DNA from: a virus
Lineage: Duplodnaviria; Heunggongvirae; Uroviricota; Caudoviricetes
Reading direction: 5' to 3' (one strand)
Length of the DNA: 27,426 nt
IMG/VR virus record: IMGVR_UViG_2671180885_000001
Coordinates: 1-27,426 of that record
In this document: positions 5,839 to 26,649 of the stretch, one piece after another
How positions within the stretch are numbered: position 1 is the stretch's first letter
How the letters are laid out: every line of letters begins with the position of its first letter
The notes under the pieces: generated by a model
Databases searched by the model: none
What the model was told of the DNA's origin: nothing
The model's input: only the letters and a program-made list of their open reading frames with translations
Made by a program: the position numbers and the translations under genes

Positions 5839-6034
5839 AGTCCTCCCGCGTGATCTGCCCGTCGCGCAGAAGCTGGTAGGCTTTGTGTTTGTAGTACCAG
5901 TTGATAGCCAGCATCAGCACACCGATCATCAGGCCGCCCAGCGTTGAGGCATCCTTGATGGACAAATCGCCCAGCCAGGCCAGCACGACGGCGATGCAAT
6001 ACGTGATAAAGGCGCTGATTCGCTCAAGCGTCAT
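5819..6034 (-). CDS. Y: Holin (two transmembrane domains; possible pinholin)
   Basis: ORF track 71 aa; two hydrophobic helices and charged C-terminus; immediately upstream of the endolysin. Confidence 0.7.
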   Translation of the reverse strand: MTLERISAFITYCIAVVLAWLGDLSIKDASTLGGLMIGVLMLAINWYYKHKAYQLLRDGQITREDYESINR

Positions 6035-12694: not shown

Positions 12695-12928
12695 CTAATG
12701 TAACCAGCTGTCGTCCTCCCAGACCTGCTGCATTATTTCCATCACTCGCTTTTTATCTTCATCCAGTTTTAACCCGCTCAGCTCAACGCCGTTGGCACTG
12801 CCCTTACGGATACGAATTGCTGTTTTGGGATACAGAGGGCGCAAATTACGGTAAAGCTCGGATTCAAGGGCGTCCAGTGTAGCCTGGCTAATCTTCTGCT
12901 CTTTATCGATCATTATTTCAATGCGCAT
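12695..12928 (-). CDS. DinI-family protein
   Basis: ORF track 77 aa, MRIEIMIDKEQ...EIMQQVWEDDSWLH, typical DinI length and termini; own RBS AAGGGA. Confidence 0.75.
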   Translation of the reverse strand: MRIEIMIDKEQKISQATLDALESELYRNLRPLYPKTAIRIRKGSANGVELSGLKLDEDKKRVMEIMQQVWEDDSWLH

Positions 12929-12939
12929 ACAGATTTCCC

Positions 12940-13155
12940 TTAACTGGTTACGTCCATTGACCGGCAGTATTCATGGCTGCGGATTTTCGCCATCAGCTCG
13001 TCGGTCAATTCAGACACCCACTGGATAGCCAGCCGCTTTTCTTCGTCGCTGCACTCACTAGCCGCTACAAGCTTAATAAAAAAATCAATGCGCTGGAGCT
13101 TCAACGACTCCAAAAGATAGTCCTGCATCTTCCCTCCTATCACGACCCCGGACAT
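12940..13155 (-). CDS. Small SOS-controlled protein, possible Tum-like antirepressor (start uncertain, alternative ATG at 13128)
   Basis: ORF track 71 aa; directly downstream of a strong LexA box; position matches the 186 tum region downstream of A. Confidence 0.4.
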   Translation of the reverse strand: MSGVVIGGKMQDYLLESLKLQRIDFFIKLVAASECSDEEKRLAIQWVSELTDELMAKIRSHEYCRSMDVTS

Positions 13156-18478: not shown

Positions 18479-19111
18479 ATGATACAGGTAAAGGTTGGAG
18501 AGAATACAGGGGGAAGAGAGGCTATCCATAGACTAATGGCAGCCTATGATTTCAAGTCCAGACAGCAACTTTGCGATCACTTAGGCGCATCAAAAAGCAC
18601 CATGGCAAACAGATACTTAAGAGATAGTTTTCCTGCAGAGTGGGTGATTCAGTGCGCCTTGGAAACAGGAGTTTCTTTACTGTGGCTAACCACCGGACAG
18701 GGGGAGCCAGGTCCAAACATTGAACCTAAAAAAAATATCAATTCCGTGAACTCCAGCAAGGTTGTACCTCTTTCTGAACTAGTATCTCCTGAAATTGACA
18801 AGGCGACTCTCAACGGTGGTTTATTGGTCGATGCTGGAAAAGCAATCATTGATAGCAGCATACTCCCCTCAGACTCAAGCAACCTACTGCTGGTGACTAC
18901 TTCTGGTGATTCTTATTTAATAGATCGCAACCAAACACCACCAGTAAATGGTATGTGGTTAGTCGATATCGACGGGATAAAAAGCATCGTTAAATTGACT
19001 CGACTCCCGGGAAACAAATTAGTAGTGCATCAGGATGATTCATCGTTTGAGTGCGGTCTGGATGACATTGAGGTAGTAGGCCGCGCACTGAAAATCATTA
19101 AGAGCCTTTGA
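18479..19111 (+). CDS. cI: Immunity repressor, 186 CI-like (N-terminal HTH, C-terminal oligomerisation domain)
   Basis: ORF track 210 aa; far longer than P2 C (about 99 aa) and close to 186 CI (about 190 aa); immediately upstream of int. Confidence 0.65.
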   Translation: MIQVKVGENTGGREAIHRLMAAYDFKSRQQLCDHLGASKSTMANRYLRDSFPAEWVIQCALETGVSLLWLTTGQGEPGPNIEPKKNINSVNSSKVVPLSELVSPEIDKATLNGGLLVDAGKAIIDSSILPSDSSNLLLVTTSGDSYLIDRNQTPPVNGMWLVDIDGIKSIVKLTRLPGNKLVVHQDDSSFECGLDDIEVVGRALKIIKSL

Positions 19112-19112
19112 T

Positions 19113-20132
19113 ATGACCATCAGAAAACAGCCGAACGGAAAATGGTTGTGTGAGTGCTATCCCAATGGACGCAATGGCAAGCGCGTGCGTAAGCAATTTG
19201 CCACGAAAGGCGAAGCCATTGCGTTTGAAAGCTTCACAATGGAAGAAGTGAATAAAAAACCGTGGTTGGGTGAAAAGGATGATCGGCGACGCCTATCAGA
19301 ATTAATTGAGCTTTGGTATTCCCTGTATGGTCAGACACTCGCAGACCCCAAGCGCCTCATGGCGAAACTTAGAATTATCTGTAATGGTCTAGGCGACCCC
19401 ATCGCCTCTGAGCTGACAGCAGGTGATTTCACAAAATATCGGGAAGCCAGATTAAAGGGGGAGGTCCAAAATGAAGACGGTTCGTTCATGTCACCCGTTA
19501 AACCTCGCACAGTTAATCTTGAGCAGCGTAACCTGTCATCGGTGTTCGGTACATTGAAAAAACTAGGGCACTGGTCCGCACCAAACCCGCTGGCAGGGCT
19601 TCCAACCTTCAAAATTGCTGAAGGTGAATTGGCTTTTCTTTCCACGGACGAAATCAAACGCCTGTTGGCTGCATGTGCTGAATCTCAAAGCCCGAGCCTA
19701 CTAATGATTACCAAAATATGCTTAGCTACCGGCGCACGGTGGAGTGAAGCCGAAAAACTGCAGGGCCATCAGTTATCCAAATACCGCATCACTTATACCA
19801 AGACGAAGGGCAAGAAAAACCGTACCGTGCCGATATCTCAGGAGCTGTACAACGAACTTCCTAAAAACCGAGGGAAGTTATTCTCGCCATGCAGAAAAGC
19901 CTTTGAGCGTGCAGTAAAGCGGGCCGGTATTGAGCTTCCAGAGGGTCAATGCACCCATGTATTACGTCATACATTTGCCAGCCATTTTATGATGAACGGA
20001 GGAAACATACTTGTTCTTAAAGAGATTCTCGGTCATACAGATATAAAAATGACAATGGTTTATTCTCATTTTTCCCCAGACCATCTTGAAGATGCCGTTA
20101 CCAAAAACCCTTTACATATGTTAACTATTTGA
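19113..20132 (+). CDS. int: Tyrosine integrase (P2 Int family)
   Basis: ORF track 339 aa; C-terminal catalytic region HVLRHTFAS...LGH...Y; position next to att. Confidence 0.9.
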   Translation: MTIRKQPNGKWLCECYPNGRNGKRVRKQFATKGEAIAFESFTMEEVNKKPWLGEKDDRRRLSELIELWYSLYGQTLADPKRLMAKLRIICNGLGDPIASELTAGDFTKYREARLKGEVQNEDGSFMSPVKPRTVNLEQRNLSSVFGTLKKLGHWSAPNPLAGLPTFKIAEGELAFLSTDEIKRLLAACAESQSPSLLMITKICLATGARWSEAEKLQGHQLSKYRITYTKTKGKKNRTVPISQELYNELPKNRGKLFSPCRKAFERAVKRAGIELPEGQCTHVLRHTFASHFMMNGGNILVLKEILGHTDIKMTMVYSHFSPDHLEDAVTKNPLHMLTI

Positions 20133-20142
20133 GCTTATCAAA

Positions 20143-21363
20143 ATGGATATTAAAAACAAAGTCAATAAAGAAAAGTTATTTGAGAACCATTTAAACTCAT
20201 TATTAAAACAAGTCATTTCCGAACCAAAATTAAACCCTCCACTTATAGTACATAGAGATATAATAAGTGACTTCACTGAACGTTGCGATAAGTATCTAAA
20301 AACAATAATTAAATACAAAAGCAACAATAAAGATGGGATGCCGAATTTTGATGAATTAATCAGCAAAGCTAAGAACATTCAAAATGGAATAACATTATCA
20401 CTTGAAAGTTTTTTATCCGGTGATATCAAGTCAGCATATGACCACTTTGATAAAACATTCTCTGATAACTCAACAATCCAACACATACATCGCATCACTA
20501 CTCCACTCAGTAGCATTTGCAATCATAAAAAACCATTATTTCGAGTTAGAAAAAGTGAAAATCCTCTAACGTCAAGAGATGAAATTTTCCATATTCCATT
20601 CTCCAATAGACATTTTGTTAGTGCACAAAGATATTCAGTCGCTGGCTTACCATGTTTATATCTTGGCACTTCTGTTTATGTTTGTTGGCAGGAGATGGAA
20701 AAACCAGATTTTGACAAGCTTTTTATTTCATCATTTACTACCAGTGAAACTGAATATAAAGTCTTAAACTTTGCATCACAGCTTTTGTTACATCCCTCAC
20801 CAAATTACGCTGACGAAAATAAACTAGCCGAAACAAATAGAGTAAAGGCCTCTTATCTCATTTTCTGGCCTTTAATTATTGCATGTAATTATTTAAAAAA
20901 TCATCGTTCTGCAACATTCATACAAGAGTACATTATCCCTAATTTGTTGATGCAATGGATTAGTAGAAAAACTTACTCGAAAATTGTCGGTGTAGCTTAC
21001 TTCTCTACAAAAATGCCTAATTCACGATTAAGTAACCGCTCAATAAATGTTGTATTTCCACCCAAAGTTACATATGAACAAACGGTAAAACAAAATTTTT
21101 GCCCTAAACTCTCCACATTATTCGACTTTACGCCACCTATTTCGTGGCAGGTCTTAAAAACATTAGATCATTCATCAATAACAGAAAATTCAATAGAATT
21201 GATGATGTCAAAGAGATATCTTCAAAGTCAAGAAAAACTGTCTGGAATTAAAAACTTCGAAGAGGACATTGTAAAACTATACCCCTTAACTGATTTTTAC
21301 AAACTCGAAAGAAGTATTGATATGCTATTTGAATATAAAAAGATAGATAACCCCATACTATAA
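20143..21363 (+). CDS. AT-rich cargo protein of unknown function with RES-domain-like motifs
   Basis: ORF track 406 aa; markedly lower G+C by eye than all flanking phage genes; blocks LFRVRK, RYSVAGLPCLYLGTSVYVCWQEM and GVAYFSTK resemble the Arg, Glu and Ser blocks of RES-domain toxins (from memory, not searched). Confidence 0.55.
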   Translation: MDIKNKVNKEKLFENHLNSLLKQVISEPKLNPPLIVHRDIISDFTERCDKYLKTIIKYKSNNKDGMPNFDELISKAKNIQNGITLSLESFLSGDIKSAYDHFDKTFSDNSTIQHIHRITTPLSSICNHKKPLFRVRKSENPLTSRDEIFHIPFSNRHFVSAQRYSVAGLPCLYLGTSVYVCWQEMEKPDFDKLFISSFTTSETEYKVLNFASQLLLHPSPNYADENKLAETNRVKASYLIFWPLIIACNYLKNHRSATFIQEYIIPNLLMQWISRKTYSKIVGVAYFSTKMPNSRLSNRSINVVFPPKVTYEQTVKQNFCPKLSTLFDFTPPISWQVLKTLDHSSITENSIELMMSKRYLQSQEKLSGIKNFEEDIVKLYPLTDFYKLERSIDMLFEYKKIDNPIL

Positions 21364-21478
21364 AACTGGCGACAAATTGGCGGCAGAACTTTAAAATCAC
21401 ATAAAACAGCCAAACACAAGATAAGACTAATTCACTGATTTAAAAAGTAAATATCTATTTTCACTATAATATAAATGG

Positions 21479-21525
21479 TATGTAGGAATTTCGGACGCGG
21501 GTTCAACTCCCGCCAGCTCCACCAA
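21479..21525 (+). other. Prophage attachment core (attR) = duplicated 3'-terminal about 47 nt of ssrA (tmRNA), ending CCA
   Basis: ATGTAGGAATTTCGGACGCGGGTTCAACTCCCGCCAGCTCCACCA matches the E. coli tmRNA 3' end (T-arm, acceptor stem, CCA); upstream sequence is not ssrA, so this is a partial copy. Confidence 0.8.
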
Positions 21526-21651
21526 TCATGATTGGACGGTGTAAGGACAACACCAACAAAAACAGGAAGTTAGAAGTCTCAGCAAAACACCGACCAGACG
21601 GTGAGGAGACATAAAAGGATACGCAAAGGAGCCGCGGCTCCTGGTAACATG

Positions 21652-21676
21652 AAAGCCCACAGATGTGGGCTTTTTC
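21652..21676 (+). terminator. Intrinsic terminator hairpin between attR and the autotransporter gene
   Basis: AAAGCCCAC-AGAT-GTGGGCTTT followed by TTTTT. Confidence 0.5.
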
Positions 21677-21684
21677 GTTGATGG

Positions 21685-24600
21685 TCAGAACGACCAGTTC
21701 ACACCAGCTACCGCGTTCCACGGGGATTCCACACCGGCACTATGGCTATACCCCACCCCAAGATGCCCGCTTAACGTACTGCTGAATGAGGCTTTAATAC
21801 CTGCCTGGTATATTCCACGTCTGCCCGACAAATAATTGACGAAATTACCGTCACTATTCACTTTCACCCGGTTATCATCGACAAATTCTTTGCGCACAGC
21901 CGCCTTCAGCCACGGCTCAACTTCCATACCGTTCCCCAGACGCATGTTGTAACTCAGCGTTGCGCCCAGTTCACGATATATACTGCGGGTATCGACTGAT
22001 TTCGATTTCATGCCATTGGATAAATGATATTCGGGGTTATCAGCGGTGAACCCCGTTAACGATGCATACGGCGTCAGGTTCCAGTTACCATCGGTAAATC
22101 GCATCCCGGTTTCAATGTGACCGCCCAGCCCGTTGCTGTGGTAACTGCCATTGGCGGCTCCACCGCTGCTCATTTTACCTGCTACGTTACTTTTAAAACG
22201 GTTCAGCTTCACGACACCGTCCAGATAGAAACCACTTTCATGTTCCCAACTGGCATAGCCGCCCAGAGAATAACTGCCCACACTGCCATATCCTCCGCGA
22301 TCAAAACCGATATGTGAATGGGAATAGCCCATAAAAGCGCCTAGCGTGGTAATTCCTTCAGGAATATCATTACGGCTGTCGATCCCCACTGTCATTCCGG
22401 TCAGCGTCTGCTCAAACCCGGCACCCGCATCGGTGGTGACATTATTACGGGTGTTATACGTCGCCCCCCAGACATTATTGTTGTGTGGACTCGCTTTCAT
22501 TATGTTCAACCGCTCGCGAATACTGTTTAGCTCAGCATCAAATACCAACGGTAATGTTGCTGCCATATTGAGTACGGCTGCCGTAGAAGGCGTAATGCGT
22601 TTCTCCGGAACGGGTGTCGGCGTTGGATCGGGAGTAGGGTCTGGTTTTGGATTTGGGTCTGGCTTTGGATCGGGTTTTGGGTCTGGCTTTGGATTTGGGA
22701 TGGGGTCCGGGTTGGGTTTGACATCATTGGTCAGGTTCCAGTTGCTGTTGCCGTCACTTTTCAGGACATACTCATAGGTCCCAAGATCAACGAAACCGCC
22801 GGTATTGCCCAGCGTAAACGAAGCATCCCCTCCCCCTGTTTTCACCAGCGTCATCGCGTCGTCAGACTGTGGGCTGACGCCGGTATCCTGAACAAAGATT
22901 TTAAAATTACCAGTGGCGTTGTTGTTGACGACCAGTTGATCGCCCCGGGAGCCTGCAACGTTGGTATGCAGGTAGAAATTACCGCTACCGGAAAGTTCAT
23001 TGGTTGTCAGCGTATTGTAGATACCGTTAGTTGTGGCAGGCGCTGCTGTTTGTGCTGACAAATAAACATCACCGTCGTTGAGTAGCAAACTGTTTACTCT
23101 ATATTCGCAGTTGCTGGTACCTGCACAGGAATTATTGCTGTTAAGCCAGACACTGCCCCGGCTGGCAGCCGTCAGGTCGGCAAGCGTGGTATCGACGCCA
23201 TTTCCCAGAGTCAATGTCGCGCTATCGGTAATCCGGACCGCCCCTTCGAGTTTAACTGGCGTAACATTATCCCGTGGCGTCATTAACGACAGGCTTCCTG
23301 TCGCGCCACTGACCGATGCATCCGCCAGCGTACCTGCGTAGACGATTGCCGTACCGCCAGCGACCTGGAGATCTTCTGCCCGGGCCAGAGCCTGAAACTC
23401 ATCTTTTGACCGCCCAAGGGTATATTGCCCGCCAGAGTTAACCTTTGTGGCGGAGTCCTGACCCAGGTTTTGCATTGCCCCACCCTTGCCAACCGTGGAG
23501 TCGCGAGCTTCGGTACCTGCTAATACCAATAAATTACCGCCATTTTCCAGCAACATATTGGTCGCTAAATTGCCGGAAATGGAAAAAGTACCGTACTGGT
23601 GAGTACCGCTGATTTCAATACCGTTAGCCGTGCTCGTCTGGAGAGCGGCACCGCTGTTCTGGACGATATCTGTCGCTTTGCCATTATCGTTGACTGTCAG
23701 CGTACCGCCTTCATTGATCTTTGTTTTTATTGCCTCTCCGTTAGCTGAAACTGTTTGTATTCCGCCGTCGTTAATTGTTGTCTCATTCGCCACACCCTCG
23801 ACAATTTGTTCACCGCCGGTGAGCGTCGTGCCTGTCGCAGTGGCTTTTGTTTTGACGATCTCCCGTCCGCCCATATTGACCTGTGTTTTGTCAGAAGAGG
23901 TGTCTGACTCCACGGTTAACACGCCGCCATTTGCCAGCAGGATATTGTTCGCCGCACCCTGCTCGATGCTGAACGCGACGCCATCCGCGCGTGTTCCTGT
24001 GACCCGCGTCGCCCTGGTGGTTGCAACCAAAGCGCCCTGGCTACTCTGCTGTATCCCCGTTGCGCTGCCTTTCTCCCGCACATCGAGTGTGCCGCCGTCA
24101 TTAAGCACCGAGTTTTCAGCCAGACCGCCCTCATTAACTACCTGTGAACCCCCATTAATAATGGAACCTTCCGCTGTCCCGTTTGCCATAATTTGTTGTA
24201 GGCCAGAGACGATATCGGTATTGATTGCCTTACCATAATTCTGAACGGTTTGCGTGCCACCATTGATGTGTGTTTTCTCTGTTGACCCACCATCAACAAT
24301 TTGTTCACCACTTTCGATATTTGCTTCAGTGGCTAAACCATATACCGTTTGCTTGCCACCTTTGATATTTGCTTTATCAGAAGTGGCACTGGCATATATT
24401 GTTTGGGTGCCAGCACTATTGAGTACAGTGCCAACATCTTTTCCATAAACATCCATTTTGCCGTTGGCATTAATAATCGTGTCAACTGCCCGGGAACCAG
24501 TGACGACTGTTAATGAGCCAGCGTTTTCCAGCACTACATTTTTAGCTTCTGAATTCCTGATGTAGAAAGCATCACCATAACTGTTGGTTCCTTCGATAAG

Positions 24601-26265
24601 TGTTCCGGAGGTCGTGGAAGCAATTAATGCGCCGCCGGATTGTTGCTCAACATGCTTAGCCTCACCACCGTCCTGAACCTCCAGAACGCCGCCATTATTA
24701 AGTCTGGTGCTATCTGTTTTAGCCTCCTTCTGGACAATCAGCTTACCGCCAGTATCAATGGTAGTATTTTTCGCCGAGGTTTTAGCCACTACCGTCAGTT
24801 CGCCGGTATTTTCCAGCACAACATAATTAGCCTCCCCTCCGGTAATAGTGAAGTGAGAGAGCTTGTTGTATCCTTCGATATCAGTCCCTGCACCCGTGTT
24901 GGCAACTAAAGCACTGCCCGTCTCCTGGTTAACCCCATGTGCAATACCGCCGGTATAGACAATCAGCGAGCCTCCGGCGCTAATATTGCTGCCAATTGCC
25001 GTACCATCTTTCTCAACAACCTGCCGGCTCCCGGAGGATATAATTGTTGTGTCAGCTTTCCCGCCGCTTTTGATATTTTGCGTTCCGCTGTTGATATTGG
25101 TGCCTGTGGCTATGCCATAATTATTAATATTCTGTGTGCCACCATTAATTATGGTATTTGTCGCGTTTCCTGCAACATCCATAACCCCGCCATTATCTAT
25201 TCGGGTCGCATCAGCTTTAGCATTGGTTAAAACTGACATTGTTCCTTTATCTTTAATAATCGTCTTGTTTGCCGAACCATATGCGTTTATGTCTAAATGA
25301 CCACCGTTTTCCAGCAACACATTGTCTGCCACGTGATTGTGGATGGAGAATGCACCTTCACTATTCGTACCGCTCACCGTCGTACCGTTAGTGTTAGTTT
25401 TTAAAATTGCACCATCGTGCTGGGTAACATTTGTTGCCGTACCACCACTAACATCAAGCACGCCACCAGAATAAACTTCAATAACATCCGAGGTGCTGGT
25501 GTTATCAACAATTTGCGTGCCACCAGAATAGATATGCGTATTTTTTGCCGTTGACTTACTATTCAGAGACTGAGTTCCGCCTTCAATCGTCGTGTCCAGC
25601 GCACGGCTCTCATATACTCTTTGCTCACCGCCATTTTTAATGGTTGTTGTTTCTACTGTGCTCTGTTCAACATACTGTCGACCACCATTTATGGTTGTGT
25701 TCGTTGCCAGACTTCCTTGTACTACGTCCTGAGAGCCAGACTTATTTATCGTTGTACCATCAGCATGCCCTTGAACTTTTACTATCTGGCTACCACCATC
25801 AATGAGTATTCCATTCGCACTCCCTCCCTCTACGCGTGAAGCACCGCCCTTAATTGTCGTTCCATTGCTGATACCCCCTTTATAAACGTCCTGATTGCCA
25901 CTCTCGATTGTCGTACCTGTGGAAATACCCCCGTCATGAATTGACTGTCTGCCACCGTTAATGGTTGTATTATTAGCCTGCCCCACAAAATTGTTATGAC
26001 TTCCTATATCTTGATATCCACCAGATTCAATAAGACTTCCATTAGATACCCCGCCATGAACATTCTGCTGGCCATGGTTGATAATATGAGTGTTATTTGT
26101 TGTACCTCGTTCATCCACTTTTTGGTTGCCATCTACAGTCTCATCGTTTACCACACCAATAACATTAGTAGTGAAGGCAGCCATCCCGGGCGGGGCATAT
26201 ATCAAGGCAGATATCAATAAGGAAAGTACTGAGCGGCGACAATAATAGGGACTGGTCCTGTTCAT
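21685..26265 (-). CDS. ypjA: AIDA-I-type autotransporter adhesin (YpjA-like): signal peptide, long beta-helical passenger, Pro-rich linker, C-terminal beta-barrel
   Basis: ORF track 21685..26394; start at 26265 (MNRTSPYYCRRSVL) has GAGGA about 8 nt upstream and gives about 1526 aa; repetitive GG/T/N-rich passenger, PNPDPKPDP linker, C-terminus ending NWSF; chromosomal context beside ssrA island end matches K-12 ypjA. Confidence 0.75.
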   Translation of the reverse strand: MNRTSPYYCRRSVLSLLISALIYAPPGMAAFTTNVIGVVNDETVDGNQKVDERGTTNNTHIINHGQQNVHGGVSNGSLIESGGYQDIGSHNNFVGQANNTTINGGRQSIHDGGISTGTTIESGNQDVYKGGISNGTTIKGGASRVEGGSANGILIDGGSQIVKVQGHADGTTINKSGSQDVVQGSLATNTTINGGRQYVEQSTVETTTIKNGGEQRVYESRALDTTIEGGTQSLNSKSTAKNTHIYSGGTQIVDNTSTSDVIEVYSGGVLDVSGGTATNVTQHDGAILKTNTNGTTVSGTNSEGAFSIHNHVADNVLLENGGHLDINAYGSANKTIIKDKGTMSVLTNAKADATRIDNGGVMDVAGNATNTIINGGTQNINNYGIATGTNINSGTQNIKSGGKADTTIISSGSRQVVEKDGTAIGSNISAGGSLIVYTGGIAHGVNQETGSALVANTGAGTDIEGYNKLSHFTITGGEANYVVLENTGELTVVAKTSAKNTTIDTGGKLIVQKEAKTDSTRLNNGGVLEVQDGGEAKHVEQQSGGALIASTTSGTLIEGTNSYGDAFYIRNSEAKNVVLENAGSLTVVTGSRAVDTIINANGKMDVYGKDVGTVLNSAGTQTIYASATSDKANIKGGKQTVYGLATEANIESGEQIVDGGSTEKTHINGGTQTVQNYGKAINTDIVSGLQQIMANGTAEGSIINGGSQVVNEGGLAENSVLNDGGTLDVREKGSATGIQQSSQGALVATTRATRVTGTRADGVAFSIEQGAANNILLANGGVLTVESDTSSDKTQVNMGGREIVKTKATATGTTLTGGEQIVEGVANETTINDGGIQTVSANGEAIKTKINEGGTLTVNDNGKATDIVQNSGAALQTSTANGIEISGTHQYGTFSISGNLATNMLLENGGNLLVLAGTEARDSTVGKGGAMQNLGQDSATKVNSGGQYTLGRSKDEFQALARAEDLQVAGGTAIVYAGTLADASVSGATGSLSLMTPRDNVTPVKLEGAVRITDSATLTLGNGVDTTLADLTAASRGSVWLNSNNSCAGTSNCEYRVNSLLLNDGDVYLSAQTAAPATTNGIYNTLTTNELSGSGNFYLHTNVAGSRGDQLVVNNNATGNFKIFVQDTGVSPQSDDAMTLVKTGGGDASFTLGNTGGFVDLGTYEYVLKSDGNSNWNLTNDVKPNPDPIPNPKPDPKPDPKPDPNPKPDPTPDPTPTPVPEKRITPSTAAVLNMAATLPLVFDAELNSIRERLNIMKASPHNNNVWGATYNTRNNVTTDAGAGFEQTLTGMTVGIDSRNDIPEGITTLGAFMGYSHSHIGFDRGGYGSVGSYSLGGYASWEHESGFYLDGVVKLNRFKSNVAGKMSSGGAANGSYHSNGLGGHIETGMRFTDGNWNLTPYASLTGFTADNPEYHLSNGMKSKSVDTRSIYRELGATLSYNMRLGNGMEVEPWLKAAVRKEFVDDNRVKVNSDGNFVNYLSGRRGIYQAGIKASFSSTLSGHLGVGYSHSAGVESPWNAVAGVNWSF
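22610..22720 (-). repeat. In-frame tandem repeat encoding the (P-D/N-P-K/T) linker of the autotransporter
   Basis: Reiterated GGGTCTGGCTTTGGAT-like units on the plus strand, about 6 bp periodicity. Confidence 0.5.
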
Positions 26266-26649
26266 AAATTTCATCCTCTGAAAAGTGAATACTGAGTAGC
26301 GTTTAAGCGACCTTAGCTTTGCTGCAACATCAGCCCACAGGCACCAGACCAGGGGATTCATCCTGAAGAGACAGCGCAAGTGTATTGTGTTCACCGCTCA
26401 TCAAAGACATCATGATGAAATGATGATATTCCGCATAAGAATGAGGCATTTTTTAAACGCAGTGCGCTGAAGTGTGGTTGGATAAAAAAGTCAATCCATT
26501 CAGGAAATACGGGCGTATTCTTTTCTTTCGACAATGAGGCCGTTGGCAAAATAAAATGATTTACATAATCGTTTCTGATGAATATCTTCTGCTCACATAA
26601 AAATCACACAATAACTTTGAGATCGCAGATTGTTTTACTTTTACAGCAT

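Follow-up and report, generated by a model that had tools for sequence, protein, structure and literature searches.

What does a 406-aa open reading frame (ORF) do at the very edge of a prophage, between the integrase gene and the attachment site, and how did it come to lie there? We addressed this question in a window of 27,426 nucleotides, the whole stretch of DNA analysed, whose host element is a 186/P2-like prophage of E. coli integrated at ssrA. Its lysogenic operon begins with a 186-type CI repressor gene (18479-19111, plus strand; Pfam Phage_CI_repr, E = 5e-31; Phage_CI_C, E = 6e-28) and continues with the tyrosine integrase gene int (19113-20132, plus strand; Int_N, E = 1e-29; Phage_integrase, E = 4e-24), the left anchor of the cargo slot. 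The 406-aa ORF, taken from the ORF list of the window with an ATG start (20143-21363, plus strand), follows the end of int at 20132 after a gap that we recomputed as 10 nt, in agreement with the first-pass annotation, and the order CI repressor gene, int, cargo matches cI-int-orf69 of phage 186. On the right, only 3 nt separate the end of the ORF from two direct TGGCGRC repeats (21367-21387; TGGCGACAAATTGGCGGCAGA), predicted arm-type sites for Int that form the right anchor and, read as the reverse complement, fit the arm consensus YAYCGCCAYTY given for 186 Int in NC_001317. Wherever both were detected, this sequence (≤4 mismatches) lay 126 nt upstream of the ssrA core, irrespective of the cargo.

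The att core of attR is the 3′ end of ssrA, the tmRNA gene (21480-21524, plus strand; Rfam tmRNA, E = 3e-13). The Rfam match covers the 3′ part of the model (positions 186-374) and ends at 21524, with the ssrA 3′ end sequence GGACGCGGGTTCAACTCCCGCCAGCTCCACCA at 21493-21524; because ARAGORN found no complete tmRNA in the window, we read this fragment as the displaced attR copy. The core is kept across the loci compared, and its distance from the end of the ORF, earlier put at about 115 bp, measured 112-129 nt, varying with the chosen core start. Past attR and outside the element lies the host flank, here the ypjA/ehaD autotransporter gene (21685-26394, minus strand; ypjA is annotated at the match in E. 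coli genomes), and host flanks differ in other strains bearing the identical prophage cargo. An Rfam isrB match at 21650-21733 (minus strand, E = 0.087) fell under the gathering score and was taken as chance.

We then considered the origin of the gene, which had been described as conspicuously AT-rich and separately acquired; both points held. GC content is 0.317 in the 406-aa ORF and 0.463 in int, and sliding windows gave 0.30-0.34 within the ORF and 0.44-0.53 in the flanks. Compared across genera, int retains 90-96% amino acid identity while the cargo beside it is diverged (39-56% identical) or swapped for unrelated genes. Sequence comparison supports the view that this is AT-rich cargo acquired separately from its neighbours.

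The slot itself is exchangeable. Between the same boundaries, other E. coli carry a dCTP deaminase gene, which is a validated anti-phage gene (PADLOC, E = 2e-146), an HNH protein or an unknown 510-aa protein, and these alternating cargoes are all AT-rich (GC 0.32-0.34). The interval is variable and compositionally distinct, its anchors are conserved and known defence genes alternate in it, the features by which hotspot cargo is recognised. Unrelated cargo between the same anchors in sister prophages bore out the suspected cargo swapping and ruled out a core gene of the phage lineage. The P2-like int-att interval has already been listed as a minor defence hotspot. The claim that neither P2 nor 186 has a gene there was right for P2, whose int-attP interval is empty, and wrong for 186, in which Orf69 is located between int and attP. 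Orf69 resembles the cargo in lying after int and before attP within the lysogenic operon, but it is an 83-aa protein of unrelated sequence and attests the slot in the type phage, not the function of the cargo. The P2-like defence morons old, tin and fun/Z are likewise AT-rich single-gene cargo between conserved Peduoviridae prophage anchors, and the dCTP deaminase cargo has identical int/arm-site boundaries; the morons, however, have other biochemistry, and the main P2 hotspot is the gpA-portal interval. Here, that interval holds only a DinI gene (12695-12925, minus strand) and a small, unassigned ORF of 70 aa.

Which enzyme the gene might encode was not apparent from standard searches. Against Pfam, NCBIfam and PADLOC, the protein returned noise alone (DUF2198, E = 0.13; creatininase, E = 0.16), PHROGs matched it only to families without known function, and Foldseek against viral structures (BFVD) gave nothing with E ≤ 0.001. 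The suggestion that the Pfam RES profile (PF08808) might recognise the protein failed, with no match even at E ≤ 10. Family profiles A1 and A2 drew only coiled-coil noise from all PDB sequences, so the RES relationship is invisible to HMM-versus-sequence search. With no match in Pfam, NCBIfam, PADLOC or PDB sequences, RES homology rests on fold, on profile-profile comparison and on transitive sub-threshold matches.

The protein is predicted to adopt an RES/ART-type fold, and four of its five closest structures, MbcT, VPA0770, P. putida Res and NatT, are toxins of Xre-RES toxin-antitoxin (TA) systems. Pfam RES matched weakly, below threshold, in 12 of 29 close relatives (best E = 0.025) and likewise in 32 of 80 distant relatives (best E = 6e-6); YopC of SPbeta, a true family member (30% identity to the 406-aa protein, E = 5e-32), reached 22.4 bits where the gathering threshold is 23.2 bits. 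In hhalign, broad family profiles aligned with the catalytic core of three tested aRES proteins, the stand-alone RES defence proteins of a January 2026 preprint (Osterman et al., bioRxiv 10.64898/2026.01.28.702374), at 85.4% (E = 6e-6), 89.8% and 91.7% probability, with E values from 8e-7 to 6e-6 in a single register; the narrow profile A1 gave 6% with the register unchanged. The aRES study took a profile-profile probability above 80% as its criterion for an RES domain, its own test being hhsearch against Pfam. These comparisons support an RES fold of the ADP-ribosyltransferase type, and the three motif blocks that had been read as RES-like are present; conservation in the family is highest in these blocks, and with the broad profiles the core aligns to aRES at 85-92%.

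The RES active-site constellation, an Arg on strand 1 followed by Arg, Tyr, Glu, Ser and Asn, is present in the 406-aa protein. Profile A1 (29 relatives) shows no variation at R134, R136, R163, Y173, E184, S288 or N302, and most of these residues are invariant across 80 relatives too. The first six align to aRES R182, R184, R215, Y225, E236 and S334, all identical, and N302 aligns to N349. Those six aRES positions are all the residues mutated in the aRES study, where active-site point mutations abolished defence (bioRxiv 10.64898/2026.01.28.702374). The spacing R163-Y173-E184 (10 + 11 residues) is close to that of MbcT R47-Y58-E69 (11 + 11), of which R47 and Y58 are essential, and the catalytic spacing also fits NatT.

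We next compared the architecture of the protein with known RES systems. Its catalytic core (aa 128-310; 20524-21072, plus strand), delimited by hhalign against aRES and by the invariant residues, is preceded by an N-terminal helical domain, a putative sensor or regulatory module (aa 1-120; 20143-20502, plus strand; helices 3-26, 40-61, 69-91, 95-106 and 109-117), and followed by a C-terminal helical region, a second family-specific extension (aa 311-406; 21073-21360, plus strand; helices 335-340, 351-366, 372-382 and 384-395). With these long extensions the protein is indeed about twice the size of a canonical RES toxin. The closest functional precedent is aRES: the phage protection conferred by stand-alone RES proteins of E. 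coli, Klebsiella and Enterobacter works through depletion of NAD+ to ADPR-1P (bioRxiv 10.64898/2026.01.28.702374), and their prior description lowers the novelty of the present protein. Both are encoded by a single gene without an operonic partner, fall within 300-600 aa, place the RES core after a non-catalytic domain, and occur in Enterobacteriaceae and Firmicutes beside defence genes. In contrast, aRES proteins carry, as part of their definition, a Cys-rich HEPN/RES-NTD1 domain (PF18870) with CxxC...CxxC motifs, whereas the N-terminal domain here is a Cys-free helical bundle without such motifs. PF18870 matched aRES proteins but neither the 406-aa protein nor any of its 80 relatives, which excludes membership of aRES as published. 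The N-terminal domains aligned to each other at only 0.3-1.7% in hhalign and are unrelated, so the sensing logic of aRES is not transferable. The C-terminal helical region is an addition relative to aRES and is likewise unrelated to it (hhalign, 1.1%). Pfam RES scores aRES at E ~1e-14 and the 406-aa protein, with its diverged core, not at all, and the aRES gene list lacks B. subtilis, LF82 and Cronobacter entries, in all of which the 406-aa family is present.

The gene also appears to act without a partner. The stretch from its stop codon to the att core contains no candidate antitoxin ORF, the only overlapping ORFs being spurious (≤50 aa). No Xre/COG5642 (MbcA/ParS-type) antitoxin gene adjoins it, its upstream neighbour being int, and none accompanies the enterobacterial, Aeromonas or Ferrimonas homologues, as the first-pass annotation had anticipated for this locus. 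No partner gene of any kind was conserved in the 15 loci taken from other genomes or on six contigs with the identical protein. The Xre-RES toxins (MbcT, P. putida Res, NatT, VPA0770) differ on each of these counts: they are chains of 144-250 aa without fused extensions, they are neutralised by the product of a separate gene, an Xre/MbcA/ParS antitoxin that blocks the active site with its C-terminus, and their described roles are persistence and stability rather than defence. NatT, a well-studied RES system, showed no role in phage defence, a point against a defensive reading of the present gene. With no antitoxin gene and 406 aa in place of a small single-domain toxin (~150-250 aa), an Xre-RES TA toxin was ruled out.

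Given an RES fold, conserved catalytic residues, a solo gene and a slot shared with a validated defence gene, we lean towards the interpretation that this is a stand-alone RES enzyme carried as exchangeable int-attR cargo and acting, when expressed in lysogens, as an NAD+-depleting abortive-infection protein. Anti-phage defence, by a protein related to aRES but differently built, is the most likely role on our comparative analysis. Neither promoter nor terminator was predicted between int and the ORF, the ORF has a weak Shine-Dalgarno sequence and no predicted promoter of its own, and the promoter and terminator scan, yielding sites no more numerous than in shuffled sequence, speaks neither for nor against a promoter of its own. 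Since the scan did no better than shuffled sequence, we infer expression from the phage 186 paradigm, in which cI-int-orf69 is annotated as one lysogenic operon. On that paradigm, the gene would share the lysogenic promoter and transcript of cI and int, and the protein would consequently be present in every lysogen. Its own fast-evolving helical N- and C-terminal domains would hold it inactive until a cue from a superinfecting phage frees the RES core. The freed core would destroy NAD+, most plausibly by phosphorolysis to nicotinamide and ADP-ribose-1″-phosphate as do MbcT, NatT and aRES. The infected cell would then arrest and replication of the competitor phage would be blocked, protecting the lysogen population and the resident prophage.

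The chemistry is one point at which this interpretation could fail, as the RES fold does not fix it: ParT of ParST, a 160-aa protein paired with ParS, is a protein ADP-ribosyltransferase that modifies Prs and is not an NADase. A ParT-like enzyme that transfers ADP-ribose to one particular target of host or phage, such as Prs or a protein of replication or translation, in place of bulk NAD+ depletion would still be compatible with defence or exclusion. We regard it as unlikely, though the foremost of the alternatives, because four of the five closest structures come from Xre-RES TA systems, with NAD+ phosphorylase activity confirmed in the literature for MbcT and NatT, because aRES, the sole characterised stand-alone RES proteins, deplete NAD+ and form ADPR-1P, and because every residue tied to NAD+ phosphorolysis or defence is retained.

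Somewhat less probable again is an addiction, stabilisation or persistence toxin whose fused helical domains serve as an intramolecular antitoxin, penalising prophage loss or inducing stress dormancy. Canonical RES proteins are TA toxins to which roles in plasmid stability and persistence have been ascribed, the gene lies at the extreme prophage edge within the lysogenic operon, and yopC in SPbeta follows the small HTH gene yopB in an Xre-RES-like order. Yet YopB, an HTH protein of 75 aa, is shorter than the 113-aa MbcA, whose C-terminus blocks the active site of its toxin, and no antitoxin ORF occurs here or in the other Proteobacteria loci examined. A single polypeptide, moreover, lacks the differential stability needed for post-segregational killing, and genuine defence genes take the place of this gene in the slot elsewhere.

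The distribution of the family bears on whether the gene performs some other service for the phage. By sequence, the protein belongs to a large family of its own, with members in SopEPhi, Cartapus and SPbeta (YopC). The orthologues in the enterobacterial phages Cartapus, RE2010 and SopEPhi (45% identity, E = 2e-107) occupy the same int-att slot, while yopC is an internal gene of a large Bacillus phage, located downstream of yopB and not adjacent to an integrase gene. The family is likewise present in E. coli LF82 and S88, B. subtilis and Cronobacter. Counter-defence or lysogenic conversion, for instance by using up immune signals made from NAD+ or by changing the metabolism or virulence of the host, would suit the homologues in SopEPhi, related Salmonella P2-like phages and the pathogenic E. 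coli LF82 and S88, as well as the frequency with which att-adjacent morons are conversion genes. We nonetheless consider it improbable: the protein has no signal peptide, secretion feature or virulence-domain match, its catalytic set is that of NAD+-degrading enzymes, and the family extends to environmental Aeromonas, Ferrimonas and Clostridia, with defence genes as frequent neighbours; one Clostridium homologue adjoins a Septu-type PtuA/PtuB pair. A silent or decaying passenger, whether an RES-derived pseudo-enzyme or an unexpressed gene, would fit the weak Shine-Dalgarno sequence, the lack of a predicted promoter of its own and the degraded homologues at two loci (L012, frameshifted; L017, fragmented), but is very improbable given an intact ORF, an identical protein that recurs on contigs of 127 blocks in the assembly collection, the invariance of the catalytic residues, and a family of ~2,700 clusters at 50% identity, mostly of 360-400 aa.

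Returning to NAD+-depleting abortive infection, we asked where the family varies. Mean pairwise identity is 28% for aa 1-85, 31% for the insert at aa 201-240 and 40% for aa 346-406, compared with 63-76% in the core, the N-terminal domain being the most variable part of the protein. Variation focused in this domain, the insert and the C-terminal tail is the pattern that would be expected of arms-race recognition surfaces. A more ambitious reading, which we put forward tentatively and hold less firmly than the defence interpretation itself, is that this gene would be the founding example of another way of building single-protein RES NADase immunity, the second and independent of the first. The N-terminal domain, possibly helped by the C-terminal helices, would both sense the phage and hold the enzyme inactive, and swapping of alleles at the int/arm-site cassette of 186/P2-like prophages would change which competitor phages are aborted. 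It would unite the SopEPhi, SPbeta YopC, LF82 and S88 genes.

NAD+ depletion is a major bacterial route to aborting phage infection, but it was not until 2026 that RES enzymes were counted among such systems, and then solely for proteins with a specific N-terminal domain. If the present family is active, RES immunity would gain ~2,700 clusters (50% identity) now annotated as hypothetical, together with a new candidate sensor domain, and the recurrent integrase-edge cargo of P2-like prophages would be explained, including that of SopEPhi, SPbeta and pathogenic E. coli prophages. This would be one defence family that neither the databases Pfam, NCBIfam and PADLOC-DB v2 nor the definition of aRES pick up. 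RES enzymes form ADPR-1″-phosphate, which phage NARP1 is unable to recycle; the family would therefore bear on which phages superinfect such lysogens, candidates being carriers of NARP1-AP phosphatases or aRad-type inhibitors. Some records of YopC and its orthologues are already labelled 'putative RES protein' or 'RES domain-containing protein'.

The core (aa 128–310) of the 406-aa protein encoded between int and attR is a divergent RES domain whose catalytic set is predicted to be intact, a conclusion we draw because several lines of evidence agree, including transitive matches, profile–profile comparison and the catalytic residues. The Pfam check proposed in the first-pass annotation failed for the protein itself, which had no meaningful match in Pfam, NCBIfam or PADLOC searches, but gave weak RES matches for 12 of 29 close and 32 of 80 distant relatives (best E = 6e-6); RES was the only Pfam family matched recurrently among them. 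The protein matched only PHROG 7835, a function-unknown family, among PHROGs, and the family profiles had no match to PDB sequences. SPbeta YopC, which matches the protein at E = 5e-32, scored 22.4 bits on Pfam RES, under the 23.2 cutoff. Comparison by hhalign with three experimentally tested aRES proteins (stand-alone antiphage RES-domain proteins; bioRxiv 10.64898/2026.01.28.702374) gave probabilities of 85.4% (E = 6e-6) and 89.8% (E = 2e-6), and 91.7% (E = 8e-7) for the cores alone. The register was identical in all aRES comparisons, including that with a narrow 29-relative profile, where the probability was only 6%. The RES resemblance itself is not new, since some database records already label homologues ‘putative RES protein’.

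In this register, R134, R136, R163, Y173, E184 and S288 pair with aRES R182, R184, R215, Y225, E236 and S334, exactly the six positions mutated in the aRES study, in which active-site point mutations abolished defence (bioRxiv 10.64898/2026.01.28.702374). The motif statements of the first-pass annotation hold, and the blocks it called RES-like rank as the best-conserved stretches of the family. The six residues and N302 do not vary among the 29 aligned members; in the sample of 80, most of the seven are invariant or reach at least 90% conservation. The R163-Y173-E184 spacing (10 + 11) matches that of R47-Y58-E69 in MbcT (11 + 11), whose toxicity is abolished by R47A and Y58A; the analogous set in NatT is R82, Y93, S184 and N193. 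Three further residues, H150 (in an FHIPF motif), W182 and Y263, are invariant in this family but absent from aRES.

In the predicted model, the core is preceded by an N-terminal helical domain (aa 1–120) and followed by a further helical region (aa 311–406). The former is unrelated to the Cys-rich HEPN/RES-NTD1 of aRES (hhalign 0.3–1.7%), and PF18870, which the aRES proteins do match, had no match in this protein or the 80 distant relatives. How far family members diverge depends strongly on the region, with mean pairwise identities of 28% over aa 1–85, 31% over the aa 201–240 insert, 40% over aa 346–406, and 76% and 63% over the two core halves.

The window includes the right-hand portion of a 186/P2-like prophage, in which Pfam recognizes terminase, portal, gpA and Dam as well as a CI repressor of the 186 type and a tyrosine integrase. 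The RES-like ORF (20143–21363, + strand, ATG start, 406 aa) begins 10 nt past the int stop codon (20132), upstream of the ssrA-derived att core, and is AT-rich (GC 0.317 versus 0.463 for int; sliding-window GC 0.30–0.34 within it and 0.44–0.53 beyond), both as originally described. About 3–4 nt after its stop codon, two direct TGGCGRC repeats (TGGCGACAAATTGGCGGCAGA, 21367–21387) correspond, in reverse complement, to YAYCGCCAYTY, the Int arm-type consensus of phage 186, and the distance from arm repeat to ssrA core is exactly 126 nt in all 10 loci with both detected, whatever the cargo. The ssrA 3′ end occupies 21493–21524, where Rfam matches the 3′ part of tmRNA (match end 21524); because ARAGORN detected no full-length tmRNA gene anywhere in the window, this is the displaced attR copy, past which lies the host autotransporter gene ypjA. 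Only spurious short ORFs separate the stop codon from the att core, in line with the reported lack of an adjacent antitoxin ORF. The statement that P2 and 186 have no gene in this slot was right for P2 (none between int and attP) and wrong for 186, where Orf69 lies. At the classical P2 variable locus, the portal–gpA interval, a 70-aa ORF beside the DinI gene (12940–13152, − strand), a putative tum according to the first-pass annotation, had no Pfam match.

Many contigs encode the identical protein, in every case behind the same cI-int pair and with differing host flanks, and the gene is therefore phage-owned. Across genera, integrases are 90–96% identical and the RES-like genes in the same slot only 39–56%. 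Comparison across prophages bore out the suggested cargo swapping: in other E. coli genomes the slot, bounded on both sides as it is here, carries an anti-phage dCTP deaminase (PADLOC E = 2e-146), a 331-aa HNH-motif protein (strain ET734, L026:2284-3279) or an AT-rich, function-unknown 510-aa protein without a PADLOC match (strain IZSBS22, L027:2289-3821), each at GC 0.32–0.34. The latter two are candidates for further defence genes. In a 2026 preprint, the stretch between int and att is listed among the minor defence hotspots of P2-like phages; RES cargo is mentioned neither there nor in Rousset et al. 2022. No partner gene is conserved across the loci compared. A Citrobacter prophage has a two-gene cargo, in which an additional 375-aa ORF (L005:4798-5925), apparently a membrane protein without a PADLOC match, sits between int and the RES-like gene; a degenerate arm-repeat copy at 5892 suggests cassette stacking. 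In phage Cartapus, a 160-aa gene across attP (L003:5497-5979), annotated as exonuclease with a weak BRCT-like Pfam match (E = 9e-4), may mark a second cargo position flanking att.

The family comprises 2,693 clusters at 50% identity (E <= 1e-3), 1,014 of them at E <= 1e-30, with members mostly of 360–400 aa. At least 40 of 5,426 complete E. coli genomes, including LF82 and S88, carry a member, all annotated hypothetical; the window allele was not found among the complete genomes searched. Distant homologues adjoin a Septu-type PtuA/PtuB pair (Clostridium), ATPase and PLD-like genes, or HipA-like genes. Single members of one alignment (A4) also have restriction-endonuclease domains of the LlaMI type (E = 3e-42) or the MvaI/BcnI type, a sign either of fusion to restriction systems or of gene calls wrongly joined beside them. 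Copies are frameshift-split in Aeromonas bestiarum (L012:5786-6948, 71 + 293 aa) and fragmented in a Bacillota locus (L017:5977-6788). In Enterobacter chinensis (L007:5310-5954) the gene is intact and the adjoining integrase truncated, so this prophage remnant kept its cargo.

What the analysis shows for the gene is a RES fold, an intact catalytic set, solo organization and a cassette place in a defence slot. When triggered by infection, aRES proteins convert NAD+ to nicotinamide and ADPR-1''-phosphate, and E. coli is protected while its growth arrests; by analogy this protein would perform the same chemistry with an abortive-infection outcome, its variable N- and C-terminal helical domains perhaps serving as autoinhibitor and sensor. 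A rival assignment on the same fold is a ParT-like protein ADP-ribosyltransferase. The protein does not belong to aRES as defined, lacking PF18870, part of their operational definition, nor to the Xre-RES toxin–antitoxin modules, with which it shares the core but not the defining antitoxin gene; a self-contained addiction or persistence toxin is a further rival. SPbeta yopB-yopC (L002:2285-3948), in which the gene for the 442-aa YopC immediately follows a 75-aa Cro/C1-type HTH gene, resembles an Xre-RES pair, but YopB is shorter than the antitoxin MbcA (113 aa), and proteobacterial members have no yopB-like partner. B. subtilis, LF82 and Cronobacter all have family members yet do not appear in the aRES gene table, as would be expected if the family had been overlooked. 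Since the aRES preprint, stand-alone RES defence is no longer a surprising concept, and the gene is a good testable candidate for it; a non-defence conversion or counter-defence role is another rival reading of the cargo. The gene could also be a silent passenger. No promoter or terminator is predicted in the 10-nt gap after int, and the annotation of phage 186 treats cI-int-orf69 as a single lysogenic operon under pL and pE, so the protein should be made in lysogens; it would be co-expressed with cI and int from the lysogenic transcript.

Beyond the att core, the flank at 21525–21684 (AATCATGATTGGACGGTGTAAGG...) matches comparison locus L001, is unlike those of L004, L005, L008 and L009, and has a weak isrB-like Rfam match (E = 0.087). 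Beside the ypjA end, at ~21653–21677, there is a hairpin with a T-run after it (AAAGCCCACAGATGTGGGCTTTTT). The flank may have been left behind by a different element integrated at ssrA.
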